Assembly (NCBI RefSeq): GCF_057098645.1
Contig: NZ_CM169472.1
Direction: 5' to 3' (one strand)
Length of the DNA: 64,000 nucleotides
The notes below the pieces were generated by a model. It did not search any database. It saw only the letters and a list, made by a program, of their open reading frames with translations, and was not told the origin of the DNA. Positions 1 to 53,989 of this stretch are shown here, piece by piece (position 1 is the stretch's first letter; each line of letters starts with the position of its first letter). The position numbers and the translations under genes were made by a program.

Positions 1-250
1 CTTGTTGCAAAAATACGGCCCCACCGCTGGCATTATTGGTCATATCCGAAAAAACCAGCCATTGCCCATCGGCGATACTCCAGACCTGCGTAATGCCTGA
101 AAGGCTTTGCCTGCTGGCGTGACAACTCGCTTTGATATCATATCCCTGGCATAAATCAATGGCCGCCGCGACACCGTTAGCAGAGAAAAGAGATGCAATC
201 ATTGACGGGAGTAGAGATAAATACTCCTTGCGTAGAAAGATAATCCGCAT
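1..250 (-). CDS. yfaL: Autotransporter adhesin YfaL, N-terminal fragment (gene continues beyond window start)
   Basis: Minus-strand translation from ATG (complement of 248-250) reads MRIIFLRKEYLSLLPSMIASLFSANGVAA..., recognised as the YfaL signal-peptide N-terminus; no stop within window. Confidence 0.6.
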   Translation of the reverse strand, partial: MRIIFLRKEYLSLLPSMIASLFSANGVAAAIDLCQGYDIKASCHASRQSLSGITQVWSIADGQWLVFSDMTNNASGGAVFLQQ

Positions 251-783
251 ATTAATCTGACCATTATTTTATATAAGACGGCATATTTAAACGCATTATA
301 CAATATGGGTTATCTTTCTTTTGTAAATTGTCCAACCCGATGCAATAGCTATTTTGTTATTATTTAATGAATAGTATCAGTGCGTCATAATTCAAGTTAA
401 TAACCTTAAGGGATACCAGTTATATTTAAACTAAATTAAAGTAATGAATAATTTTCTTATAATATAAGGTATATTAACAAAATGGCTTCGCATTTAACAA
501 TAACCGAATAGAAAACAACCATTTCGACATCAACAATCGCTTACATTCGCTTATATATTGACCACAACTGATACATCAGATTATGTGATGACTCGTGCTT
601 AGATCAATTTTTGCAATCATTAGCAAAAAGATTAATAAACCATCTATATCAATTTATCCAACCTATTCTGCCGTTCAAGAAATCGCCGAACAGTTATTTT
701 TAACAAATTTTTCTCTTCCCATTGACTTTCCCGGACACCTTGTCTGACCTAAGGTGCGCGAAAGCCACTTTTTCCTTCCTGAG

Positions 784-804
784 TTATCCACAAAGTTATG
801 CACT
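784..804 (+). promoter_or_regulatory. Two adjacent DnaA boxes (TTATCCACA at 784-792, TTATGCACT at 796-804) upstream of nrdA
   Basis: Exact and 8/9 matches to DnaA box consensus TTATNCACA read directly; nrdAB promoter is known to carry DnaA boxes. Confidence 0.6.
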
Positions 805-821
805 TGCAAGAGGGCCATTTT

Positions 822-867
822 CACACTATCTTGCAGTGAATCCCAAACATACCCCCTATATATAGTG
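822..867 (+). promoter_or_regulatory. Two putative NrdR boxes (CACACTATCTTGCAGTG and CCCCTATATATAGTG) about 31 bp apart at the nrdAB core promoter
   Basis: Palindrome-like 16-17 bp motifs with AT core about 80-120 bp upstream of nrdA ATG; spacing of about three helical turns fits NrdR box pairs. Confidence 0.5.
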
Positions 868-945
868 TTCTAAGCAGCTTCCCGTACTACAGGTAGTCTG
901 CACGAAACTATTGCGGAAAGAATTCCAAAAACAGGTACGACATAC

Positions 946-3231
946 ATGAATCAGAATCTGCTGGTGACAAAGCGCGACGGTAGCACAGAGCGCATCAATC
1001 TCGACAAAATCCATCGCGTTCTGGATTGGGCGGCAGAAGGACTGCATAACGTTTCGATTTCCCAGGTCGAGCTGCGCTCCCACATTCAGTTTTATGACGG
1101 TATCAAGACCTCTGACATCCACGAAACTATTATCAAGGCTGCCGCAGACCTGATCTCCCGTGATGCGCCGGATTATCAGTATCTCGCCGCGCGCCTGGCG
1201 ATCTTCCACCTGCGTAAAAAAGCCTACGGCCAGTTTGAGCCGCCTGCGCTGTACGACCACGTGGTGAAAATGGTCGAGATGGGCAAATACGATAATCATC
1301 TGCTGGAAGACTACACGGAAGAAGAGTTCAAGCAGATGGACACGTTTATCGATCACGACCGTGATATGACCTTCTCTTATGCTGCCGTTAAGCAACTGGA
1401 AGGCAAATATCTGGTACAGAACCGCGTGACCGGCGAAATCTACGAAAGCGCCCAGTTCCTTTATATTCTGGTTGCCGCGTGCCTGTTCTCGAACTACCCG
1501 CGTGAAACGCGCCTGCAATATGTGAAGCGTTTTTACGACGCGGTTTCCACATTTAAAATTTCGCTGCCGACGCCAATCATGTCCGGCGTGCGTACCCCGA
1601 CTCGTCAGTTCAGCTCCTGCGTGCTGATCGAGTGCGGCGACAGCCTGGATTCCATCAACGCCACCTCCAGCGCGATTGTGAAATATGTTTCCCAGCGTGC
1701 CGGGATCGGCATCAACGCCGGGCGTATTCGTGCGCTGGGTAGCCCGATTCGCGGTGGCGAAGCGTTCCATACCGGCTGCATTCCGTTCTACAAACATTTC
1801 CAGACTGCGGTGAAATCCTGCTCTCAGGGCGGCGTGCGCGGCGGTGCGGCAACGCTGTTCTACCCGATGTGGCATCTGGAAGTGGAAAGCCTGCTGGTGT
1901 TGAAAAACAACCGTGGTGTGGAAGGCAACCGCGTGCGCCATATGGACTACGGGGTACAGATCAACAAACTGATGTATACCCGCCTGCTGAAAGGTGAAGA
2001 TATCACCCTGTTCAGCCCGTCCGACGTACCGGGGCTGTACGACGCATTCTTCGCCGATCAGGAAGAGTTTGAACGCCTGTATACCAAATATGAGAAAGAC
2101 GACAGCATCCGCAAGCAGCGTGTGAAAGCCGTTGAGCTGTTCTCGCTGATGATGCAGGAACGTGCATCTACCGGTCGTATCTATATTCAGAACGTTGACC
2201 ACTGCAATACCCATAGCCCGTTTGATCCGGCCATCGCGCCAGTGCGTCAGTCTAACCTGTGCCTGGAGATAGCCCTGCCGACCAAACCGCTGAACGACGT
2301 CAACGACGAGAACGGTGAAATCGCGCTGTGTACGCTGTCTGCTTTCAACCTGGGCGCAATTAATAGCCTGGATGAACTGGAAGAGCTGGCAATTCTGGCG
2401 GTTCGTGCACTTGACGCGCTGCTGGATTATCAGGATTACCCGATCCCGGCCGCCAAACGTGGAGCGATGGGTCGTCGTACGCTGGGTATTGGTGTGATCA
2501 ACTTCGCTTACTACCTGGCGAAGCACGGTAAACGTTACTCCGACGGCAGCGCCAACAACCTGACGCATAAAACCTTCGAAGCGATTCAGTATTACCTGCT
2601 GAAAGCGTCTAATGAGCTGGCGAAAGAGCAAGGCGCGTGCCCGTGGTTTAACGAAACCACTTACGCGAAAGGGATCCTGCCGATCGATACCTATAAGAAA
2701 GATCTGGATGCCATCGCTAATGAACCACTGCATTACGACTGGGAAGCACTGCGTGAATCGATCAAAACGCACGGTCTGCGTAACTCCACGCTTTCTGCCC
2801 TGATGCCGTCCGAGACTTCTTCACAGATCTCTAACGCCACTAACGGTATTGAACCGCCGCGCGGTTACGTCAGCATCAAAGCGTCGAAAGACGGTATTCT
2901 GCGCCAGGTGGTGCCGGACTACGAGCATCTGCACGACGCCTATGAGCTGCTGTGGGAAATGCCGGGTAACGATGGCTACCTGCAACTGGTAGGTATCATG
3001 CAGAAATTTATCGATCAGTCGATCTCTGCTAACACCAACTACGATCCGTCACGCTTCCCGTCAGGAAAAGTGCCGATGCAGCAGTTGCTGAAAGACCTGC
3101 TCACCGCCTACAAATTCGGGGTCAAAACGCTGTATTATCAGAACACCCGTGACGGCGCTGAAGACGCGCAGGACGATCTGGTGCCGTCAATCCAGGACGA
3201 TGGCTGCGAAAGCGGCGCATGTAAGATCTGA
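946..3231 (+). CDS. nrdA: Ribonucleoside-diphosphate reductase 1, alpha subunit
   Basis: 761-aa ORF, MNQNLLVTKRDGSTERINLDKIHRVLDWAAEGL...; class Ia RNR large subunit; followed by nrdB and yfaE. Confidence 0.97.
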   Translation: MNQNLLVTKRDGSTERINLDKIHRVLDWAAEGLHNVSISQVELRSHIQFYDGIKTSDIHETIIKAAADLISRDAPDYQYLAARLAIFHLRKKAYGQFEPPALYDHVVKMVEMGKYDNHLLEDYTEEEFKQMDTFIDHDRDMTFSYAAVKQLEGKYLVQNRVTGEIYESAQFLYILVAACLFSNYPRETRLQYVKRFYDAVSTFKISLPTPIMSGVRTPTRQFSSCVLIECGDSLDSINATSSAIVKYVSQRAGIGINAGRIRALGSPIRGGEAFHTGCIPFYKHFQTAVKSCSQGGVRGGAATLFYPMWHLEVESLLVLKNNRGVEGNRVRHMDYGVQINKLMYTRLLKGEDITLFSPSDVPGLYDAFFADQEEFERLYTKYEKDDSIRKQRVKAVELFSLMMQERASTGRIYIQNVDHCNTHSPFDPAIAPVRQSNLCLEIALPTKPLNDVNDENGEIALCTLSAFNLGAINSLDELEELAILAVRALDALLDYQDYPIPAAKRGAMGRRTLGIGVINFAYYLAKHGKRYSDGSANNLTHKTFEAIQYYLLKASNELAKEQGACPWFNETTYAKGILPIDTYKKDLDAIANEPLHYDWEALRESIKTHGLRNSTLSALMPSETSSQISNATNGIEPPRGYVSIKASKDGILRQVVPDYEHLHDAYELLWEMPGNDGYLQLVGIMQKFIDQSISANTNYDPSRFPSGKVPMQQLLKDLLTAYKFGVKTLYYQNTRDGAEDAQDDLVPSIQDDGCESGACKI

Positions 3232-3240
3232 TATTGAGAT

Positions 3241-3530
3241 GCCGGATGCGGCGTAAACGCCTTATCAGGCCTACGGCTCGGTTTGTAGGCCTGATAAGAC
3301 GCGCCAGCGTCGCATCAGGCTCCGGGTGCCGGATGCAGCGTGAACGCCTTATCCGGCCTACGACTCGGATTTGTAGGCCTGATAAGACGCGCCAGCGTCG
3401 CATCAGGCTCCGGGTGCCGGATGCAGCGTGAACGCCTTATCCGGCCTACGACTCGGATTTGTAGGCCTGATAAGACGCGCCAGCGTCGCATCAGGCACAG
3501 GATGCGGCGTAAAATGCCTTATCCGGCATT
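3241..3530. repeat. BIME/REP array: three tandem ~88-bp units of inverted REP palindromes in the nrdA-nrdB intergenic region
   Basis: Units start near 3241, 3327 and 3415; each has GCCGGATGC(A/G)GCGT(A/G)AACGCCTTATCCGGCCTAC followed by GTAGGCCTGATAAGACGCGCCAGCGTCGCATCAGGC. Confidence 0.85.
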
Positions 3531-3552
3531 AAACTCCCAACAGGACACACTC

Positions 3553-4683
3553 ATGGCATATACCACCTTTTCACAGACGAAAAATGATCAGCTCAAAGAA
3601 CCGATGTTCTTTGGTCAGCCGGTCAACGTGGCTCGCTACGATCAGCAAAAATATGACATCTTCGAAAAGCTGATCGAAAAGCAGCTCTCTTTCTTCTGGC
3701 GTCCGGAAGAAGTTGACGTTTCTCGTGACCGTATCGATTACCAGGCGCTGCCTGAACACGAAAAACACATTTTTATCAGCAACCTGAAATACCAGACGTT
3801 GCTCGATTCAATTCAGGGTCGTAGCCCGAACGTGGCACTGCTGCCGCTGATCTCGATCCCGGAACTGGAAACCTGGGTAGAAACCTGGGCGTTCTCAGAA
3901 ACGATTCATTCCCGTTCCTATACTCATATCATTCGTAATATCGTTAACGATCCGTCAGTTGTGTTTGACGATATCGTCACCAACGAGCAGATCCAGAAAC
4001 GTGCGGAAGGGATCTCCAGCTACTACGATGAGCTGATCGAAATGACCAGCTACTGGCACCTGCTGGGCGAAGGCACCCACACTGTTAACGGTAAAACCGT
4101 GACCGTTAGCCTGCGCGAGCTGAAGAAAAAACTGTATCTCTGCCTGATGAGCGTTAACGCGCTGGAAGCGATCCGCTTCTACGTCAGCTTTGCTTGTTCC
4201 TTTGCCTTTGCAGAACGCGAACTGATGGAAGGTAACGCCAAAATTATTCGCCTGATTGCCCGCGACGAAGCCCTGCACCTGACCGGTACTCAGCATATGC
4301 TGAATCTGCTGCGCAGCGGTGCGGATGATCCGGAGATGGCGGAAATTGCCGAAGAATGTAAGCAGGAATGCTATGACCTGTTTGTCCAGGCGGCACAGCA
4401 AGAGAAAGACTGGGCGGATTATCTGTTCCGTGACGGTTCGATGATTGGTCTGAATAAAGACATTCTCTGCCAGTACGTTGAATATATCACCAATATCCGC
4501 ATGCAGGCAGTCGGTTTGGATCTGCCGTTCCAGACGCGCTCCAACCCGATCCCGTGGATCAACACCTGGCTGGTGTCTGATAACGTGCAGGTTGCTCCGC
4601 AGGAAGTGGAAGTCAGTTCTTATCTGGTCGGGCAGATTGACTCGGAAGTGGACACCGACGATTTGAGTAACTTCCAGCTCTGA
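3553..4683 (+). CDS. nrdB: Ribonucleoside-diphosphate reductase 1, beta subunit
   Basis: ATG at 3553 gives [37 protein letters not shown]..., 376 aa; the longer ORF-track call from 3340 reads through the REP array and is not used. Confidence 0.95.
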
Positions 4684-14971: not shown

Positions 14972-15943
14972 ATGACCGAATCAACAACCTCCTCCCCGCA
15001 TGATGCGGTGTTTAAAACCTTTATGTTCACACCCAAAACCGCACGGGATTTTCTCGAAATACATTTACCAGAACCACTGCGCAAGCTTTGCAACCTGCAA
15101 ACCTTACGCCTGGAACCCACTAGTTTTATTGAAAAAAGTTTACGCGCTTACTACTCGGATGTTTTGTGGTCCGTGGAAACCAGCGACGGTGACGGCTATA
15201 TCTACTGCGTGATTGAACATCAAAGCTCTGCAGAAAAGAATATGGCTTTTCGGCTAATGCGCTATGCCACTGCCGCCATGCAGCGTCACCTGGACAAAGG
15301 CTATGACAGAGTCCCGCTGGTGGTGCCGTTGCTGTTTTATCATGGCGAAACCTCGCCCTACCCGTACTCACTCAACTGGCTGGATGAGTTTGACGATCCG
15401 CAACTTGCCCGGCAGTTGTACACCGAAGCTTTTCCATTGGTGGATATTACCATCGTACCTGACGATGAGATCATGCAACATCGGCGTATAGCTCTGCTTG
15501 AACTGATTCAAAAGCATATTCGCGACCGCGATTTAATCGGTATGGTCGACAGGATCACCACGCTTTTGGTTAGAGGCTTCACTAATGACAGCCAGCTACA
15601 AACACTGTTTAATTATCTGCTGCAATGCGGCGATACCTCCCGTTTCACCCGTTTTATTCAGGAGATTGCCGAACGTTCACCACTACAAAAGGAGAGATTA
15701 ATGACTATTGCTGAACGGCTGAGGCAGGAAGGGCATCAAATTGGTTGGCAGGAAGGTAAATTAGAAGGTTTGCAGCAAGGTAAATTGGAGGGTCTGCAGA
15801 AAGGTAAATTAGAAGGTTTGCAGGAAGGCATGCATGAGCAAGCCATTAAAATTGCCTTGCGCATGCTGGAGCAGGGCTTTGAACGTGAGATTGTGCTGGC
15901 GGCAACCCAACTCACTGATGCTGATATTCCGAACTGTCATTAA
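14972..15943 (+). CDS. yfaD: Rpn-family recombination-promoting nuclease (PD-(D/E)XK / YhgA-like putative transposase family)
   Basis: 323-aa [55 protein letters not shown]...[21 protein letters not shown]...; recognised as YfaD (RpnB); C-terminal region holds three 8-aa (GKLEGLQx) repeats. Confidence 0.9.
15701..15943 (+). CDS. Putative nested in-frame small ORF inside yfaD (RpnS-like C-terminal domain, 80 aa)
   Basis: In-frame ATG at 15701 preceded by AAAAGGAGAGATTA, nearly identical to the ypaA ribosome-binding context; would give [25 protein letters not shown]...; expression is inference. Confidence 0.4.
15749..15820 (+). repeat. Three tandem 24-nt coding repeats (CAGNAAGGTAAATTRGARGGTYTG) inside yfaD
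   Basis: Read directly: CAGGAAGGTAAATTAGAAGGTTTG / CAGCAAGGTAAATTGGAGGGTCTG / CAGAAAGGTAAATTAGAAGGTTTG. Confidence 0.85.
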
Positions 15944-15955
15944 AAGGAGAGATTG

Positions 15956-16177
15956 ATGACTATTGCTGAACGGCTACGGCAGGAAGGACATCAAATTGGC
16001 TGGCAAGAAGGTAAATTAGTAGGTTTGCAGCAAGGTAAATTAGAAGGTTTGCAGGAAGGCATGCATGAACAAGCCATTAAAATTGCTTTGCGCATGCTGG
16101 AGCAGGGCTTTGATCGTGACCTGGTGCTCGCGGCCACCCAGCTAAGCGAAGCCGATCTGGCAGCGAATAACCACTAA
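15956..16177 (+). CDS. ypaA: Small protein YpaA: free-standing duplicate of the YfaD/RpnB C-terminal domain
   Basis: 73-aa [76 protein letters not shown], about 85-90% identical to the last 80 aa of yfaD; own SD AAGGAGAG; two 24-nt repeat units. Confidence 0.85.
   Translation: MTIAERLRQEGHQIGWQEGKLVGLQQGKLEGLQEGMHEQAIKIALRMLEQGFDRDLVLAATQLSEADLAANNH
16004..16051 (+). repeat. Two tandem 24-nt coding repeats inside ypaA (same family as in yfaD)
   Basis: CAAGAAGGTAAATTAGTAGGTTTG / CAGCAAGGTAAATTAGAAGGTTTG. Confidence 0.8.
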
Positions 16178-29082: not shown

Positions 29083-30734
29083 TGAAATCGGTACGTTACC
29101 TTATCGGCCTCTTCGCGTTTATTGCCTGCTATTACCTGTTACCGATCAGCACGCGTCTGCTATGGCAACCCGATGAAACGCGTTATGCGGAAATCAGTCG
29201 AGAAATGCTGGCATCCGGCGACTGGATTGTGCCCCATCTGTTAGGGCTACGTTATTTCGAAAAACCCATTGCCGGATACTGGATTAACAGCATTGGGCAA
29301 TGGCTATTTGGCGCGAATAACTTTGGTGTGCGGGCAGGCGTTATCTTTGCGACCCTGTTAACTGCCGCGCTGGTGACCTGGTTTACTCTGCGCTTATGGC
29401 GCGATAAACGTCTGGCTCTACTCGCCACAGTAATTTATCTCTCATTGTTTATTGTCTATGCCATCGGCACTTATGCCGTGCTCGATCCGTTTATTGCCTT
29501 CTGGCTGGTGGCGGGAATGTGCAGCTTCTGGCTGGCAATGCAGGCACAGTCGTGGAAAGGCAAAAGCGCAGGATTTTTACTGCTGGGAATCACCTGCGGC
29601 ATGGGGGTGATGACCAAAGGTTTTCTCGCCCTTGCCGTGCCGGTATTAAGCGTACTGCCATGGGTAGCGACGCAAAAACGCTGGAAAGATCTCTTTATTT
29701 ACGGCTGGCTGGCGGTTATCAGTTGCGTACTGACGGTTCTCCCCTGGGGACTGGCGATAGCGCAGCGGGAGCCTGACTTCTGGCACTATTTTTTCTGGGT
29801 TGAGCATATTCAACGCTTTGCACTGGATGATGCCCAACATAGAGCTCCGTTCTGGTACTACGTGCCGGTCATCATTGCCGGTAGCCTGCCGTGGCTGGGA
29901 TTACTCCCCGGTGCACTGTACGCAGGCTGGAAAAACCGCAAGCATTCCGCAACCGTCTATTTGTTGAGCTGGACGATAATGCCGCTGCTGTTTTTCTCCG
30001 TCGCTAAAGGTAAATTGCCCACCTATATTCTTTCCTGCTTTGCACCTCTGGCAATGCTGATGGCGCATTACGCTTTGCTGGCAGCAAAAAATAATCCTCT
30101 GGCGTTGCGGATTAATGGCTGGATTAACATCGCTTTTGGCGTCACTGGCATTATTGCCACATTTGTGGTCTCCCCCTGGGGACCAATGAACACGCCGGTG
30201 TGGCAAACCTTCGAGAGCTATAAAGTCTTTTGTGCCTGGTCGATTTTTTCGCTATGGGCATTTTTCGGCTGGTACACCTTAACAAACGTCGAAAAGACCT
30301 GGTCTTTTGCCGCGCTTTGCCCGCTGGGGCTGGCGTTGCTGGTAGGATTTTCAATTCCTGACAGAGTCATGGAAGGAAAACATCCGCAATTTTTTGTCGA
30401 GATGACACAAGAATCACTTCAGCCAAGCCGCTATATTCTTACTGATAGCGTCGGTGTTGCCGCAGGTCTGGCATGGAGCCTGCAACGCGATGACATCATC
30501 ATGTATCGCCAGACAGGTGAGTTGAAATACGGCCTTAATTATCCGGATGCGAAAGGGAGATTTGTCAGCGGTGATGAGTTCGCAAACTGGCTTAATCAAC
30601 ATCGTCAGGAGGGGATTATTACACTCGTGCTTTCGATTGACCGCGATGAAGATATCAACAGTCTCGCCATTCCGCCCGCAGATGCCATCGATCGTCAGGA
30701 GCGTCTGGTGCTGATTCAGTATCGTCCCAAATGA
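29082..30734 (+). CDS. arnT: Undecaprenyl phosphate-alpha-Ara4N:lipid A arabinosyltransferase
   Basis: 550-aa polytopic membrane protein [53 protein letters not shown]... Confidence 0.95.
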
Positions 30735-31066
30735 TCTGGCTAACATTAGTCTTTGCCAGCTTGCTTAGCGTTGCCGGGCAGTTGTGTCAGAAACAGGCAA
30801 CCTGCTTTGTGGCGATAAACAAACGGCGCAAACATATCGCGCTGTGGCTGGGACTGGCGCTGGCTTGTCTTGGTCTTGCCATGGTGCTCTGGCTGCTGGT
30901 CTTGCAGAACGTACCGGTAGGCATTGCCTACCCGATGTTAAGTCTGAATTTTGTCTGGGTGACGCTGGCTGCAGTAAAACTGTGGCACGAACCGGTATCG
31001 CCGCGTCACTGGTGTGGGGTGGCGTTCATTATTGGTGGCATTGTGATCCTCGGGAGTACGGTGTAA
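30731..31066 (+). CDS. arnE: Undecaprenyl phosphate-Ara4N flippase subunit ArnE (SMR-like)
   Basis: 111-aa four-[73 protein letters not shown]...; 4-nt overlap with arnT. Confidence 0.9.
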
Positions 31067-31452
31067 TGGGCCTGATGTGGGGATTATTCAGCGTCATTAT
31101 TGCCTCAGTTGCGCAATTAAGCCTGGGTTTTGCGGCGAGTCATCTGCCGCCGATGACGCACTTATGGGATTTTATCGCGGCTCTGTTAGCTTTTGGGCTG
31201 GATGCCCGGATACTGTTACTCGGGCTGCTGGGTTATCTGCTTTCCGTTTTTTGTTGGTATAAAACACTACATAAACTTGCGCTAAGCAAAGCCTATGCCT
31301 TGCTCAGTATGAGTTATGTGCTGGTATGGATTGCTTCAATGGTACTTCCCGGCTGGGAAGGGACTTTTTCGCTGAAAGCACTACTGGGAGTAGCCTGTAT
31401 TATGAGCGGGTTGATGCTGATTTTCCTGCCCACGACAAAACAACGTTACTGA
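31066..31452 (+). CDS. arnF: Undecaprenyl phosphate-Ara4N flippase subunit ArnF (SMR-like)
   Basis: ATG at 31066 shares one nucleotide with the arnE stop (TAATG); [36 protein letters not shown]..., 128 aa; the ORF-track call from 30784 overlaps arnE out of frame. Confidence 0.88.
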
Positions 31453-31712
31453 GTTTTCCCTGCCGCTGTACACTGCCGTTCCCACTCATCGGGGCTATAA
31501 CAGCTTGCAGAGAGGACTTTCACCGTATGCAGCTTTTCACGATTAATACAATAAAGCGCATTCTGCAAAGGCGAGAGTAAATCCCCCACTTTCACGGCGA
31601 AGTCACTCTTCACTTCGGCGATCATTTTTATCGCGCCGCCAGCATCGCAGAGCATAAGTACATGTCTGTTATCTTGTTTATTGCAGCACGATTTTTTGAC
31701 CAGCCATTCCAT
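31446..31712 (-). CDS. pmrD: PhoPQ-PmrAB connector protein PmrD
   Basis: Start at [70 protein letters not shown]..., 88 aa; 3' end overlaps the arnF 3' end by 7 nt. Confidence 0.9.
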
Positions 31713-31821
31713 TGCATTATCCTGTTTGATAAGAGTTTTCACATCAATTTACAGATTAACAGATAAACCTATTATCAACGGCAATGGAATGGCAGAAATG
31801 AGAAGTGAAACGGAGGGTTAA

Positions 31822-33177
31822 TTATTGCTGACGTTGCACCCACTCTTTTAGCACCTGACGTGAAATTTTAATACCGCCGTTTTTCAGTTCAGGCGGCAAC
31901 GTTAACCAACGCACCGGTTGCTGAAAACGGGCCAGCTTATCTTTCACCCATTCACTAAGATCAACGCTCTCGTGGTCATACTCCATCACCGCCACCGCTC
32001 GATGACCAAACTCCTTGTCGGCAACGGGGACGATAAACACCTGCAAAACCGCAGGATGTGCAGCAATTACGCGCTCGACTTCTTCCGGCTGAATACCCTC
32101 TCCGCCACTGAAGAATAGATTGTCTAAACGTCCGACAATGGTCAGCTTGCCATTATGCATCTCACCGCGATCGCGCGTAGCGTACCAGCCTTCGTCATTA
32201 ACCAGTGAAACCAGTTGCCCGTTACGCCAGTAACCTTCTGCCATACTGGCAGCCCGCAGCCACACTTCATTATTAACGATTTTCACTTCCCGACCCGGCA
32301 GCGGCGAACCAACGTCTGCCAGGCCGTCGGCTTCTTTCGCACACACCGTGGAGGCAAACTCGGTCAGACCATAGCCGCAAAAGCAACGAATCCCCTGCTC
32401 GCGTGCCTGTTCCGTCAACTCGACCGGGATAGCCGCGCCGCCAAGTAACACCGCTTTCAGGGAAACGGAACTGCGGTTAACCAGCAAACGCCAGAGTTGT
32501 GTTGGCACCAGTGAAGCGTGAGTACAGCCTGCCAGCATTTGCTCCAATGGCTGTTTATCACGCACCGTCATCCGCGCACCAGCGTATAACCAGCGCCACA
32601 TAATTCCCTGACCGGAGACGTGAAACAGCGGTAAAGAGAGCAACCAGTCATCGTGATCGCCAAACGGAATCAACGATAACACCCCTTCGGCACTGGCAAG
32701 ATGGGCCTGATAAGTATGGACAGCGGCTTTCGGCAACCCGGTAGAACCCGAGGTCAACGTCATTGAGCACAGACGCGTCGGCTGCCACGTAGCGACATGT
32801 GCGCCTTCAACCCGCTGAATGTGCAGCGACGTTAATGCCGGAAACGTGTTTTCCCCATCCGGCACCAGCGCAAATTGCAGCGTCAGATTGGGCAGCAATT
32901 CTTCAAGCAACGGTTGCGGCAGCTGAGGGTTCACGGGCAACACCCGCGCCCCGCATTGCAGTAACGCCAGCCAGGCGAGCAGCGTTTGCGGCGTATTCCA
33001 CGCCCGCAACATCACGCCGCTGCCCTCAACCACACCCTGCACCGCAAAACCGGAGGCTAATTCATCGACGCGAGCACAAAGCTCGCGCCAGTTGAGTTGC
33101 TCGTCATTAAGACGTAAGGCGATGGTTTCTCCCCGCATTTGCCGCCAGTGACGCCACGGCCAGTCAGAGAAGATCAT
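31822..33177 (-). CDS. menE: o-Succinylbenzoate--CoA ligase
   Basis: 451-aa adenylate-forming enzyme [44 protein letters not shown]...; last gene of the men cluster. Confidence 0.94.
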
Positions 33178-34136
33178 AACAACCGCTCCAGTGCATCAAC
33201 TTCCACGACAGGCAGCGTGCTACCCGGCCAGCGACGTACCTGCTGCGCCTGCATCAGATCCAGCGTGTCCAGCCCTGGAATGGTGTCCGGCGTTAACCAG
33301 GCGGCAATCCGCGCCAGTTGCGTTAAGCCTAAGCTCGATTCAATGGAAGAACTGATCACCGCCGTCAGCCCCAGCGCGTGCGCCGCCTGTACCTGCTCGC
33401 GTACTTTTTCCAGACTGCCCGTGAGCGTGGGTTTGATAACTACCGCGCGCACGCCCTCTTCAGCCACAAAGGCAAAATCCGGCTCGCGCAGGCTTTCATC
33501 CCAGGCAATGGCAATGCCGGTTTCACGGGCAAACGCTCGCGAATCATCGCGGGTTTTGCACGGCTCTTCGAGAAACGCGATGCGGTCGCGATAATCCGGG
33601 TTAACGTATTTGGCAAACTGCTGACCTTTCAGCGGTGTCCAGGCGCGATTTGCGTCAAGACGCAAACGCAGATCCGGAATTGCCTCCAGCAACAGATTCA
33701 CCACCATGCCGTCGCGCACCGCTTCGTACAATCCCACTTTGACCTTCGCCACTTTCTCGCCTGGCATATCTGCAAGTTTGAGGATCAGATCGTCCGGATC
33801 GCCATTACACAGCGGTGCCGCACGGTAGTTGGCTGCTTGCGGCAACGTATCTGTCAGTTCTGCCAATGCACAGCTTACGCCAAAGGCCACGGAAGGCATC
33901 TGCGGTAGCTCGCAATCGCCTGCCAGCCAGTTATTTACCCAGGCAAGCAGCACACTTTGCGCCTCTTCCCAGGTTTCCTGACTGAAGCCCGGCAGTGGGG
34001 AGATCTCCCCCCACCCTTCGCGCTCGCCTTCACGCAGGCAAACATACAGCCCGTCGCGGGTTTTTAACCGCCTGTCGCGCAGAACCACCCCCGCGTCCAT
34101 GGGGATCTGCCAGCGGTATACCTGCGCGCTACGCAT
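33174..34136 (-). CDS. menC: o-Succinylbenzoate synthase (enolase superfamily)
   Basis: 320-aa [63 protein letters not shown]... Confidence 0.94.
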
Positions 34137-34993
34137 TACGGATTCCGTTTGAATTTGCTGAAGTCAGGCTGACGTTTCTGGTTGAAGGCGTTGCGACCTT
34201 CCTGACCTTCTTCCGTCATGTAGAACAGCATGGTGGCGTTGCCCGCCAGCTCCTGCAGCCCCGCCTGCCCGTCACAGTCGGCGTTCAGCGCAGCTTTCAG
34301 GCAACGCAGCGCCATCGGGCTGTTTTGCAGCATTTCACGGCACCAACGGACGGTTTCTTTTTCCAGATCCGCCAGCGGTACCACGGTGTTGACAAGGCCC
34401 ATATCCAGCGCCTGTTTTGCGTCGTACTGACGGCACAGGAACCAGATTTCACGCGCTTTTTTCTGCCCGACGATACGAGCCATGTAGGAAGCGCCCCAGC
34501 CGCCGTCGAAGGAACCGACTTTCGGGCCAGTCTGACCAAAGATGGCATTATCTGCCGCGATAGTCAGGTCGCACATCATGTGCAGAACGTGACCACCGCC
34601 GATGGAGTAGCCAGCCACCATCGCGACAACCGGTTTCGGACAGGTACGGATCTGACGCTGGAAGTCCAGCACGTTCAGGTGATGTACGCCGGAATCATCT
34701 TTATAGCCGCCGTAATCACCACGCACTTTCTGGTCACCACCGGAGCAGAACGCTTTATCGCCTGCGCCAGTCAGAATGATCACGCCGATATTGTCGTCAT
34801 AACGCGCATCTGCCAGTGCCTGGATCATCTCTTTTACCGTCAGAGGACGGAAGGCATTGCGCACCTGCGGACGATTAATGGTGATTTTTGCGATACCGTC
34901 GGTGGATTTTTCATAACGAATGTCCTCGAAACCTTCGGAGCAGTCGTGCCATTCAACCGGTGCGTAAAGCATTGCTTCATCAGGATAAATCAT
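34136..34993 (-). CDS. menB: 1,4-dihydroxy-2-naphthoyl-CoA synthase (crotonase fold)
   Basis: 285-aa [59 protein letters not shown]... Confidence 0.95.
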
Positions 34994-35007
34994 ATTGTGT
35001 CCTTTAG

Positions 35008-35766
35008 TCAGAAACGCAAGATCTGCGCCAGACTTGCGATTACGCCAGCGGGATTTTCCCGATGCGCGTTATGTCCGGCGCGAGGAATGACATGGCAGTC
35101 GGCAGCCAGTTCCGCCGCCAGGGCGCGGAATTTGCTGTCACGTTCACCACATAAATAATAAAACGCAAATGTGCGGGCGCTAAGGTTAGCACGTAAATCA
35201 GGCTGAACGGCGAGAGAAGTCGCCTCCAGCATGGCGGCAAGGGTTGCGCCATTATTGTTGCTGCGCAGCGCCACCAGCTCCCGGCGTTGATCGTCATTGA
35301 GCGAGGCAAAAACAGGCTGTTGATACCAGTCGGTAAACACCGCCGTTAACGGTTCTGAGCGAAAACGCTGCGCCCATTGGCGATCGGAACGCTGACGTTC
35401 CGCACGTTGTTCAGCATTTTGCAGCCCCGGATGCCCACCTTCGACAATAACCCCACAAAGCCCCGCCAGCCCCTGGCAAGCCGCCATCATCGCCACCCGT
35501 CCACCAAGTGAGTATCCCGCCAACCAGAAGTTAAGGATGTTGTAACTAACCAGGGTTTTACGCAGTAAGTCAGTGACATCATCAAATCCATCGACTCTAA
35601 TCGCCGCCGAACCACCGTGACCTGGGAGATCAACATACAACCGTGAGTAGTCGGCAAACGCCTCGCCTACTTCTTGCCATTCGTGGCAATCGCCGGAAAA
35701 ACCGTGCAAAAACACCAGCCAGGGTAAACCTGGTTTGCCGTGTTTTGCCTGCGCGTGCAGGATCAT
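35008..35766 (-). CDS. menH: SHCHC synthase (alpha/beta hydrolase)
   Basis: 252-aa [56 protein letters not shown]... Confidence 0.92.
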
Positions 35767-37433
35767 AAATGGCTTACCTGCGCCAGAAGTTGCTGGAGCG
35801 TTTGCGCACCATCGGTGTCGTTAACCACCATTTCAATCACCGTGGTGGTTGGCGTGCGCCAGGCGTCAGCAAGCGCCGTTTCAAGTTCCTGCCAGTTTTG
35901 CGGACGATGATATTTCAGCTCGAACATCGCGGCGGCGTGCTCAAAATGGACGTTTTGCGGCATCAGATAGAAACGCTCGCGCTCGCTTTGCGGCGTTGGC
36001 AACAGCGAGAAAATTTGCCCGCCGTTGTTGTTCACCACAATTAATACCAGCGGCGCGGAAACCTGGCGCAATAACGCCAGCGCATTCAGGTCGTAAAGTG
36101 CGGAGAGATCGCCCACAATCGCCAGCGTCGGTTTGCCGCTTGCCCGCTGAACGCCAGCGGCAGTCGAGAGCAGCCCGTCGATACCGCTGGCCCCACGGTT
36201 GCTGTACACCGGGTAACCTGCCGGAAGTTGCGAAAGCGCATCAATCAGACGTACCACCAGGCTGTTACCGACAAACAATTGCCCCTGTTCAGGCAGATAG
36301 TCGCAGATGCGATGCGCCAGTTGTGCTTCGCCAAACGCATCGCGACGGGCAATAACCGCCTGCATTGCCTGTTCCGCCAGGCGCGGAATTTCAACGCACC
36401 AGGGCTGGCGTTTTTCTGCCGGATGCAGTTCCAGCCAGTCGGCAATATTGGCAATTAACCGACGCCCGCGATGGTGCGCCGGATCAAGCCGCCCTTCGAT
36501 GTCATCCACAATCCAGTACTCTTCGGGTTCACAGCTTGCCTGCCATTGCAGGAGCCGTTTGCCCGTCAGGCTGCTTCCCAGTTGCACCACAATTTGCGCC
36601 TGTTGCAGTTCGCTGGTCGCTTTGGCATTGCCTAACCAGAGATCGGCACACGGCAGCGGCTGTCCGGTTTGCGACAGCACGTCGCCAATCAGCGGCCAGC
36701 CAAGAGTTTGCGCCCACAGTGCAACTTTTTTGCCCTCTTCCGCACTCATGCGCCCGGCAACCACCACGCCGCGCTTTTGCCGCCAGAAGAACCAGTCGCG
36801 CTGTTTTTCGCTCTCAAGACGAGGCGCTTCACGCAGCCACGGCTTATCATCCTGCCACCAGTCACCCAGACGCTGTTGCCAGCTAAGCCCAGTGTCGTCC
36901 ATCTCGCCATACAGCGGTTCAGCAAACGGGCAGTTGATATGGACCCCACCAGCATGAAGCGTACCGAGAGCATGGTCGATGGTAGAAACCAGCCAACGTG
37001 CGGGGATATCCTGGGTCGGGCGCGGCAGTGAAATACTGTGCGTGGGGTGAGAGGCGAACATTCCCGGCTGACGAATCGCCTGATTCGCGCCGCAGTCAAT
37101 TAGCTCCGGCGGGCGATCGGCGGTTAAGAGAATCAGTTTTTCTCCGGTTAACCCGGCTTCAATCAGTGCCGGATAGAGATTTGCCACCGCCGTACCGGAG
37201 GTGACAATCACCGCCACCGGCTGCTTGCTGACTTTCGCCAGCCCCAGCGCCAGATGCCCCAGTCCACGCTCATCGAAATGGGTGTGGTGAATGAATGCGG
37301 AATTCTCCGCCGCCGCTAACGTTAACGGTGTAGAACGCGAGCCAGGGGCGATACAGATGTGTCTTACGCCGTGACGCGTTAATGCTTCCAGAATGACCGC
37401 CGCCCAGCGTCGGTTAAATGCGCTTACTGACAT
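35763..37433 (-). CDS. menD: SEPHCHC synthase (ThDP-dependent)
   Basis: Start at [64 protein letters not shown]..., 556 aa; the ORF-track call from 37784 is an upstream in-frame extension. Confidence 0.93.
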
Positions 37434-37521
37434 GAGTTTGTCCGGTATCAATATTGCGGCTAAGTATAAGGAGCTACAAAAATAGATTATTGATATGAAT
37501 CGGTAATGATGCGACTCATTA

Positions 37522-38817
37522 CTATTCCATTTGTAATAAAGTACGCAGCCCTGCCGCTTTGTTGTCGATTTCCTGCCACTCTTGCTCGGGGTCGGAACCA
37601 CGGACAATGCCCGCGCCAGCATATAATCGCACGACATTGCCGCTAATTTTTGCTGAGCGCAGGGAAACGCAGAATTCGCTTTGTTGTAATGAGAGATAGC
37701 CCGCAGAACCAGCGTACCATTCTCGGGTGAACGGTTCGTGACGGGCGATAAACTGTCGCGCCAGATCGCGCGGTAAACCAGCAACTGCTGCCGTTGGCTG
37801 CAACTGATGTAAACAGATCACATCATCCGCTTTGTTGAGTGAAGTCCAGATACAGCGGCGAAGATGCTGTACTTTACGCAGACGCAGTACCTGCGGCGGT
37901 AAAACATCCAGCGTCTGGGTATCGGCCTGTAATCGTTGGCAGATATCTTCCACCACCAGCATGTTCTCGCGCTGGTTTTTATCATCCGCCATCAGCCACT
38001 CTCCTAACTGCTGCGCCTGCTTATCATCAGGATGATTTGCTACTGTTCCCGCCAGCGCTTCAGTACGCAGCGCTTTGTCACGCCGCCGCCATAACCGTTC
38101 CGGTGAAGAGCCAAGAAAAGCATTTTCGCCATCAAAGGCCATGTAAAAATGGTAGCAATTGAGATTCAGTCGACGACTGGCCGCCATCATCGCCGCCGCA
38201 TTGACCGGACTTGCGAAATGCAGGTCAGTTGCCCGAGCAAGCACCACTTTGTCGAGCTCACCTTCGGCGATGGTTTTCGTTGCCAGTTCGATTAATTGCG
38301 TCCAGCCCGTTTTGTCCGGCCAGTGTTGTTCTCGCGTAGTGGTTAAATGTAACCCAGGCAAGGGCTTGATACTCACCAGTGTGGCGATAAATTCTCTTGC
38401 CTTAATCGCATCGTGCTGAAGGGAGCTTTCGCTGAATAGCGTCAGCCGCAGCGTGGCTTTACCGCCACAGCGTCGCCATTCCAGGCGTGGTAAAAGTAAA
38501 TTGCCCTGCGACGGGTCAAACGCATTCAGCCCCCAAATGCGTAAGTCGGCGTGTTCCGGGTGCTGGCGAAGAAAACGTTGTGCCTGGTCCAACGACGTAA
38601 AACGGGTAATCGCGCCCAGGACGGCAGCTTCTTCATCACCATTACGTTGTTGCCAGTAGAATTGCGGGTACGTTTGCTGACTGGCCAGCCAGCTCAAGGC
38701 ATCAAAAGCGTCTTTGAGAGGGAAAGGAATATCGATAACCCGAATGCCGGGTGTCGCCGGAATCTCTTGCGACAAATGGCGCAGTAGATTTTCCAGCGCC
38801 GTAGTAAGTGATTGCAC
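37522..38817 (-). CDS. menF: Menaquinone-specific isochorismate synthase
   Basis: 431-aa [66 protein letters not shown]... Confidence 0.94.
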
Positions 38818-53937: not shown

Positions 53938-53989
53938 TAGCATGCTTCCAGTTTTCTCAGTCAGAGACTGAGCGTTAATCGAAATTCGG

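Follow-up and report, generated by a model that had tools for sequence, protein, structure and literature searches.

REP elements are imperfect palindromes of 30-40 nt with a conserved GTAG/CTAC tetranucleotide at the foot (PMC3333891). In E. coli they occur as types y, z1 and z2, all of which are imperfect palindromes with GTAG at the foot (Ton-Hoang et al. 2012, PMC3333891), and they are found within composite elements. In BIME-1 elements, one y REP is paired with one z1 REP across a long linker (L), which often contains an IHF site. In BIME-2 elements, y and z2 REPs are repeated several times in tandem, the linker (S) and the flanking motifs being short; the copy number of BIME-2 differs among strains (PMC3333891). 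The array located between nrdA and nrdB in E. coli K-12 is known as REP164a-e (PMC10100675).

Several activities have been associated with these elements. REPs have been linked to Rho-dependent termination, and they act as exonuclease barriers (PMC6061677). At the DNA level, a subset of BIME-2 elements is cleaved by gyrase, with y REPs cut more often than z2 REPs (PMC6379681). The Rfam naRNA4 model was built on the Y-linker-Z2 unit of another array, REP325, and the naRNA4 complement was likewise able to condense DNA together with HU in vitro (PMC4550694). As summarised by Murashko et al. (2025, PMC12306157) on the basis of Liang et al. (2015), REPs located less than 16 nt past a stop codon (that is, within 15 nt) reduce translation of the gene that precedes them, nrdAB being a reported case.

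We analysed a stretch of 64,000 nucleotides, hereafter called the window, from contig NZ_CM169472.1 of the RefSeq assembly GCF_057098645.1. In the window, nrdA and nrdB are separated by a 321-bp spacer, which is filled by a REP array. The features of the region, in window coordinates, are the following:

946-3231 (+): nrdA; the translation is a full-length NrdA of 761 aa, and the matching genes are nrdA in RefSeq
3229-3231 (+): nrdA stop codon, TGA
3232-3240 (+): 9-nt spacer between the stop and REP1, TATTGAGAT, the same in K-12; local folds begin at G3241
3240-3274 (+): REP1, y-type, with the CTAC tail at the 3' end; C->A at 3267, as in O145:H28 genomes
3275-3284: S linker (as defined in PMC3333891), tail-to-tail, GGCTCGGTTT
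3285-3320 (-): REP2, z2-type, inverted, with GTAG at the 5' end on the + strand; the z2 hairpin aligns to Rfam naRNA4
3321-3326: head-to-head linker, TCCGGG
3327-3414 (+): unit 2, comprising a y REP (3327-3361), an S linker (3362-3372), a z2 REP (3373-3408) and a linker (3409-3414)
3415-3496 (+): unit 3, comprising a y REP (3415-3449), an S linker (3450-3460) and a z2 REP (3461-3496)
3497-3529 (+): REP7, the terminal, degenerate REP, ACAGGATGCGGCGTAAAATGCCTTATCCGGCAT; an inverted repeat without CTAC
3542-3545 and 3553-3555 (+): nrdB Shine-Dalgarno sequence, AGGA, and nrdB start codon
3553-4683 (+): nrdB; the translation is a full-length NrdB, and the matching genes are nrdB in RefSeq

Tandem Repeats Finder reported one array at 3240-3496, with a period of 88, 2.9 copies, 97% matches and no indels. 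Each 88-bp unit is made of a y-type REP and an inverted z2-type REP, and is composed, in order, of a 35-nt palindrome ending in CTAC (TGCCGGATGCAGCGTGAACGCCTTATCCGGCCTAC), a linker of 10-11 nt, an inverted 36-nt palindrome starting with GTAG (GTAGGCCTGATAAGACGCGCCAGCGTCGCATCAGGC) and the 6-nt motif TCCGGG. The strict REP tail CTTATCMGGCCTAC is found six times in the array, in alternating orientations (3261-3274, 3348-3361 and 3436-3449 on the + strand; 3285-3298, 3373-3386 and 3461-3474 on the - strand), whereas 0.01 occurrences would be expected by chance in the entire 64-kb window. The 88-bp period and the six alternating tails confirm the coordinates of the three near-identical units of about 88 bp, each containing inverted REP palindromes, that the original prediction had placed between nrdA and nrdB. 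The distance between the end of REP7 (3529) and the nrdB ATG (3553) is 23 nt, close to the predicted value of about 20 bp. A search for repeats within the spacer revealed that segments 3282-3369 and 3370-3457 are 100% identical, and one of the pair is therefore an extra copy relative to O145 and K-12.

Other features were noted in the surrounding sequence. A yfaE-like ORF is located downstream of nrdB. An antisense ORF of 11 codons (3519-3554, - strand), which overlaps REP7 in its 3' arm as well as the start codon of nrdB, is the equivalent of the annotated K-12 small protein YoaM (yoaM, b4779). The only other REP-tail match in the 64-kb window is a lone REP-like tail with one mismatch, CTTATCCGACCTAC, at 46925-46938 on the + strand, around which no inverted repeat was detected. 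Tandem repeats of 24 bp, probably lying within a coding region, are found at 15743-15828 and 16008-16059 (3.6 and 2.2 copies, respectively, 83-92% matches). The Rfam nuoG RNA (RF01748) is matched at 53945-53987 on the - strand, with 50.3 bits versus a gathering score of 33.

The nrdA-nrdB array is a BIME-2, as every sequence feature of this class fits. Six elements of 35-36 nt carry the exact CTTATCMGGCCTAC tail, the seventh being degenerate, and all of them are extragenic, lying between the nrdA stop and the nrdB start. The REP hairpins have predicted energies of -15 to -23 kcal/mol and feature internal mismatches. The sequence is repeated in the genome: when a query containing the array was searched, the median number of matching places was 20 per E. 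coli genome. Elements on the + strand start with TGCC-GGATG and thus do not contain TGCC^TGAT, the site by which z-type REPs are recognised, while the inverted elements contain GCC^TGATG. The two hairpins can be aligned to the naRNA4 stems Y and Z2, as expected for the y/z2 composition of BIME-2, and the linkers (10-11 nt tail-to-tail, 6 nt head-to-head) and the 2.9 tandem copies of 88 bp also conform to this class. The array does not have the features of BIME-1: linkers do not exceed 11 nt, units are in tandem, and the IHF consensus WATCARNNNNTTR has no match in the 3232-3552 interval. The statement in the original prediction that REP arrays bind IHF is consequently inapplicable to these short-linker units, IHF sites being a feature of BIME-1 and its long L linker.

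Alternative annotations of the spacer were rejected. The ORFs running through the array (3234-3431 on the + strand, 3122-3403 and 3315-3491 on the - strand) have no Pfam match and are products of the repeats. The Rfam naRNA4 model (RF02564) is matched with 76.4 bits at both 3288-3358 and 3376-3446, in each case on the - strand, versus a gathering score of 59.5; on the transcribed + strand, the score is 44.9 bits, below the gathering score. The alignment includes both hairpins and covers the full model, with REP325 having an "l" linker that exceeds the head-to-head linker of the array by 6 nt. As the matches are on the - strand and the + strand is below threshold, they reflect the shared BIME-2 repeat sequence and do not point to an sRNA gene. 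An "naRNA4 gene" was discarded because the matches that pass the threshold are antisense to nrdAB. Transcription in the modelled orientation finds no correspondence at this locus, since the operon is on the + strand, the matches are on the - strand, and no promoter-like site was found on either strand of the spacer (3232-3552). Intrinsic-terminator-like sites, consisting of a G+C-rich stem and a U run, were also searched for in the same interval, and none was found. The CRISPRi papers examined mention both REPs and nrdA and contain nothing specific on the nrdA-nrdB array. In annotation, the stretch should be labelled as a REP/BIME-2 element, not as spurious ORFs or as an antisense "naRNA4 gene".

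The array was compared to REP164. The two have in common the locus, the flanks, the 9-nt spacer following the stop, the y/S/z2 units, the terminal degenerate REP and the nrdB leader. They differ in size, as the K-12 MG1655 spacer measures 233 bp and contains two units and five REPs, while the spacer of the window measures 321 bp and contains three units and seven REPs. In addition, three substitutions distinguish the window from K-12, namely the C->A change in REP1 and G->A changes in two S linkers. Judged from its sequence, the array is the already described REP164 BIME-2 of the nrdAB operon with one extra 88-bp unit, and represents a rare, ordinary copy-number variant.

Positions 30000-42000 of the window are 100% identical to several O145:H28 genomes, and by this measure the window belongs to the O145:H28 lineage. 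Compared to O145 RM9872, the upstream flank is free of mismatches over 3,231 nt, and the downstream flank shows 2 over 3,200 nt. Once 88 nt are removed, the spacer of the window corresponds exactly to the RM9872 spacer, including the C->A change in REP1 and the G->A change in the S linker. Since the RM9872 spacer is recovered by deleting one unit, the third unit would be a recent private duplication. A recent private duplication in an O145:H28-type background is the most likely origin of the third unit, and an assembly difference is less likely. The duplication likely occurred by slippage or unequal exchange between direct repeats; a REP-associated transposase is a possible alternative route. 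The view that the third unit is an assembly error rather than a real allele would agree with the presence of two units in 25 of the 25 O145-labelled genomes found among the best 40 matches, as well as in several unlabelled genomes having the same score, and with the fact that the RM9872 spacer differs from that of the window by the 88-bp unit only. We regard such an error as very improbable, given that three-unit alleles are present in 9 independent complete genomes from several backgrounds, and that assemblers would usually be expected to collapse, rather than expand, tandem repeats.

Alleles of the spacer were counted in 5,426 complete E. coli genomes. Unit classes were split by BLAST E-value thresholds, because coverage is misleading: genomes with two units tile a three-unit query with overlapping pieces. 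A y/z2 allele is carried by 3,431 of the 5,426 genomes. The alleles are distributed as follows:

At least three units: 9 genomes
Two units, K-12-like: about 1,971 genomes (1,980 at full coverage minus the 9 above)
One unit, 145 bp: about 970-1,000 genomes (systematic sample)
O157 variant, 226 bp: about 290 genomes (systematic sample)
E. coli B variant, 241 bp: about 110 genomes (systematic sample)
Four REPs of another subtype, 189 bp: 281 genomes, including Nissle 1917, E2348/69 and ATCC 25922
REP-free, 88 bp, with a nested CCCTCTCCC/GGGAGAGGG palindrome: 1,684 genomes (31%)

Units thus number 0, 1, 2 or 3 in this set of genomes, in line with the predicted variability among strains. Three-unit alleles are not all alike. 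For instance, A30 and 99-3165 duplicate the second unit of K-12, the duplicated unit of O157 TR01 has a substitution of its own, K-12 GM4792 features a 95-bp (88+7) duplication absent from other K-12 genomes, and STEC306-308 carry another three-unit variant. Because these alleles are found on different backgrounds and have different junctions, expansion must have occurred repeatedly. Linker indels are also recurrent: an 8-nt tandem duplication in the S linker, CTACGGCT, is found in E. coli B-type alleles (B-LamR, PK8276), and the O157 variant shows a 7-nt difference at the linkers.

In REP-free strains, the spacer (E. coli CRE10, positions 401-488 of the retrieved sequence) is occupied by a nested palindrome, CCCCTCTCCCC..GGGAGAGGG..GGGTGAGGGG, presumably akin to "Box C". 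Two identity classes can be distinguished among these alleles, one including 966 genomes (at least 99% identity) and the other 717 genomes (95-99%). As 1,684 of the 5,426 genomes have no REP at this position, the array is dispensable, and any regulation that it exerts is either non-essential or supplied by another structure. Natural alleles of the nrdA-nrdB spacer range from the absence of REPs to one, two or three units, and include another REP subtype. This convenient series could be used in vivo to analyse how, within an operon that is essential, REPs affect the termination of translation, the decay of mRNA and transcription.

RNA folding supported the prediction that the array forms a very stable RNA structure. 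The RNA spanning the spacer (3222-3565) has a predicted energy of -177.7 kcal/mol, compared to -121.7 +/- 5.5 kcal/mol for shuffled sequences (z = -10.2). When the pairing span was restricted to at most 45 nt, the energy was -159.7 kcal/mol, and mostly one hairpin per REP was formed. In every fold, the first paired base is at 3238-3241, 6-9 nt past the nrdA stop. The global fold begins at spacer position 7, and in this fold the 3' arm of REP7 is predicted to pair with the 5' arm of REP1. The transcript may adopt local hairpins or long-range y:z2 pairing. In isolation, the REP1 hairpin of the window, which has one extra mismatch in the stem, is predicted at -15.1 kcal/mol versus -21.3 kcal/mol in K-12, while the composite REP1-REP2 hairpin is predicted at -52.8 kcal/mol versus -48.1 kcal/mol in K-12. 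Occlusion of the nrdB ribosome-binding site by the extra unit was considered and rejected, as predicted accessibility is equal across alleles; values for the nrdB Shine-Dalgarno/start region are 0.66 with one, two or three units and 0.64 without REPs.

The distance of 6-9 nt between the nrdA stop (3229-3231) and the first stem is within the range reported for REPs that regulate translation. The array would be transcribed as part of the nrdAB mRNA and fold into very stable stem-loops. Because the REP1 structure begins 9 nt past the stop, a ribosome terminating at nrdA would have to melt REP1, and this may result, as reported for the K-12 allele, in ribosome stalling and lowered NrdA synthesis. 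Liang, Rudd and Deutscher reportedly used nrdAB as a model in 2015; in their work, stalling is said to trigger mRNA cleavage and trans-translation, and the effect is said to be relieved by RNA helicases and by UV stress. By analogy with other members of the family, the array may have secondary effects, including a barrier to 3'-5' exonucleases, some attenuation of transcription and gyrase binding on DNA.

By analogy with the K-12 allele, the effect on NrdA would be set by REP1 and its distance of 9 nt from the stop, whatever the number of units. The third unit is probably silent with regard to both NrdA translation and the nrdB ribosome-binding site, since the stop-to-hairpin spacing and the predicted accessibility of nrdB are unchanged. 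In our preferred reading, which we consider probable, the array is a BIME-2 at the REP164 locus in which one unit has recently been duplicated, its main consequence stems from how close REP1 lies to the nrdA stop codon, and the third unit is in all likelihood neutral. The three-unit allele would then be a rare, neutral-looking variant that brings no conceptual change. The original prediction held that the array may buffer the nrdA:nrdB expression ratio or protect upstream mRNA from decay. An effect on the balance is plausible, having been studied on nrdAB according to PMC12306157, but would be mediated by REP1 spacing and not by unit number. The idea of upstream protection fared worse, as the effect documented for nrdAB in the same text is lower NrdA synthesis.

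Structures close to the nrdA stop are not confined to E. coli REPs. We compared the nrdA-nrdB spacers of 79 other Enterobacterales species, which range in length from 12 to 322 nt. Hairpins of -10 kcal/mol or lower, starting at most 15 nt past the nrdA stop, are predicted in 58 of the 70 species having a spacer of at least 30 nt; in a crude control, such hairpins were found in 17 of 36 other spacers of the 64-kb window. The hairpins belong to unrelated families. Lineage-specific REPs are found in Citrobacter, Klebsiella and Pluralibacter, the CCCTCTCCC family, to which the REP-free E. coli palindrome belongs, fills the spacers of Pseudocitrobacter and Phytobacter, and terminator-like hairpins with U runs are present in Kosakonia and Buttiauxella. 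Spacers of 12-17 nt, in which no hairpin was found, are present in Photorhabdus, Xenorhabdus, Providencia and one Enterobacteriaceae MAG. The possibility that REP-free E. coli strains have no structure near the stop was discarded, as their nested palindrome is predicted to pair about 5 nt past it.

Given that the species counted (58/70) are non-independent and the control (17/36) is rough, these data do no more than hint at the retention of a structure near the stop, as opposed to retention of the REP itself. A bolder proposal is that a structure located within about 15 nt of the nrdA stop is an ancient, selected device for balancing the two subunits across Enterobacterales, in which REPs, Box C-like palindromes and terminator-like hairpins are interchangeable, and that in E. 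coli the number of BIME-2 units further tunes NrdA:NrdB. We consider this proposal a long shot. If it were true, unit number would tune NrdA:NrdB, and hence dNTP pools and mutation rate, between strains.

Other roles for the array were weighed against the preferred one. There is an appreciable, if minor, chance that the array is a neutral or selfish passenger in a spacer that tolerates insertions, so that nothing is selected and effects on nrdAB are incidental. The polymorphism of the locus, both in presence/absence and in copy number (0-3 units, the four-REP allele in 281 genomes, no REP in 1,684), is what a passenger would display, as are the recurrent linker indels (8 nt in E. coli B, 95 bp in K-12 GM4792, 7 nt in O157), the variability of BIME-2 copy number among strains (PMC3333891) and the spacers of only 12-17 nt in Photorhabdus, Xenorhabdus and Providencia. 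A mere passenger fits less well with the translational effect reported for nrdAB in PMC12306157, and with the finding that all four E. coli alleles that were folded (three-unit, K-12 two-unit, B2-type and REP-free) are predicted to be structured from 4-7 nt past the stop onwards. It also fits less well with the strong hairpins that unrelated sequences form within 15 nt of the nrdA stop in 58 of 70 other species, against a crude control of 17/36. A role in differential mRNA stability, whereby stem-loops block PNPase/RNase II and shield the upstream nrdA after cleavage, as in malE-malF, is doubtful. The predicted structure is extremely stable (z = -10.2), and REPs resist exonucleases and define stable 3' ends, as stated in PMC6061677 (citing Newbury 1987 and Khemici & Carpousis 2004). 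Moreover, the transcripts listed as upregulated upon lowering of ATP by NaF include that of nrdA with REP164, and the authors linked these conditions to impaired 3'-5' decay of structured RNAs (PMC10100675). However, nrdB would stay unprotected, since the array is internal to the operon and nrdB lies downstream of it, and NrdA synthesis is lowered, not raised, in the nrdAB work described in PMC12306157.

Pausing or Rho-dependent termination in the spacer could lower nrdB relative to nrdA, to an extent growing with unit number; we deem this unlikely. Ribonucleotide reductase is an alpha2-beta2 enzyme for which NrdA and NrdB are needed in equal amounts, a requirement that argues against such attenuation. 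No intrinsic-terminator-like site (stem and T run) was found in the array, and the G+C-rich spacer, being nearly all paired, would be a poor site for Rho loading. Attenuation is in turn favoured by the extension of the untranslated spacer from 233 to 321 nt in the window allele, by the terminator-like hairpins and U runs found at the same position in several genera, such as Kosakonia and Buttiauxella, and by the BIME-associated transcription attenuation reported by Espeli, Moulin and Boccard in 2001, as cited in PMC12306157 and PMC6061677. Finally, the array could act on DNA or the nucleoid, either as a strong gyrase site independent of transcription or through a naRNA4-like two-hairpin RNA bridging DNA with HU. 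In a subset of BIME-2, sites of gyrase cleavage are more frequent than expected (PMC6379681), two units of the array pass the naRNA4 gathering score, and DNA condensation with HU in vitro was also obtained with the naRNA4 complement (PMC4550694). Yet the gyrase paper names other BIME-2 loci and leaves nrdA unmentioned (PMC6379681), the naRNA4 match is antisense to nrdAB (44.9 versus 59.5 on the transcribed strand) and reflects shared repeat sequence rather than a separate gene, and the array is absent from 31% of strains. A role of this kind seems distinctly unlikely, and we retain the preferred reading, in which REP1 acts through its distance from the nrdA stop.

The array can be set beside other described elements. 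Like BIME-1 (RIB/RIP), it combines a y REP and an inverted z-type REP. In contrast, BIME-1 elements are single-copy, contain z1 and have a long conserved L linker with an IHF site, whereas the units between nrdA and nrdB are in tandem, contain z2 and have linkers of 6 and 10-11 nt. REP325, the six-unit BIME-2 located between yjdM and yjdN from which RF02564 derives, is similarly made of tandem units of y and z2 hairpins. It differs in its locus, in its longer head-to-head linker and in the strand, the match at nrdAB being on the antisense strand. HU binding and nucleoid effects have been shown for REP325 only (PMC4550694). The REP-free E. coli allele occupies the same position as the array and is likewise predicted to be structured from about 5 nt past the nrdA stop, although its palindrome is of an unrelated family, is not repeated in tandem and includes no REP tagged with GTAG/CTAC. 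The malE-malF REP stabiliser (Newbury et al. 1987) resembles the nrdAB array in that REPs are transcribed within an operon and form stem-loops able to block 3'-5' decay. The effects documented in the two operons are opposite: expression of the upstream gene is raised in malE-malF, whereas translation of the upstream gene is lowered in nrdAB, because of the short distance that separates the nrdA stop codon from the first REP.
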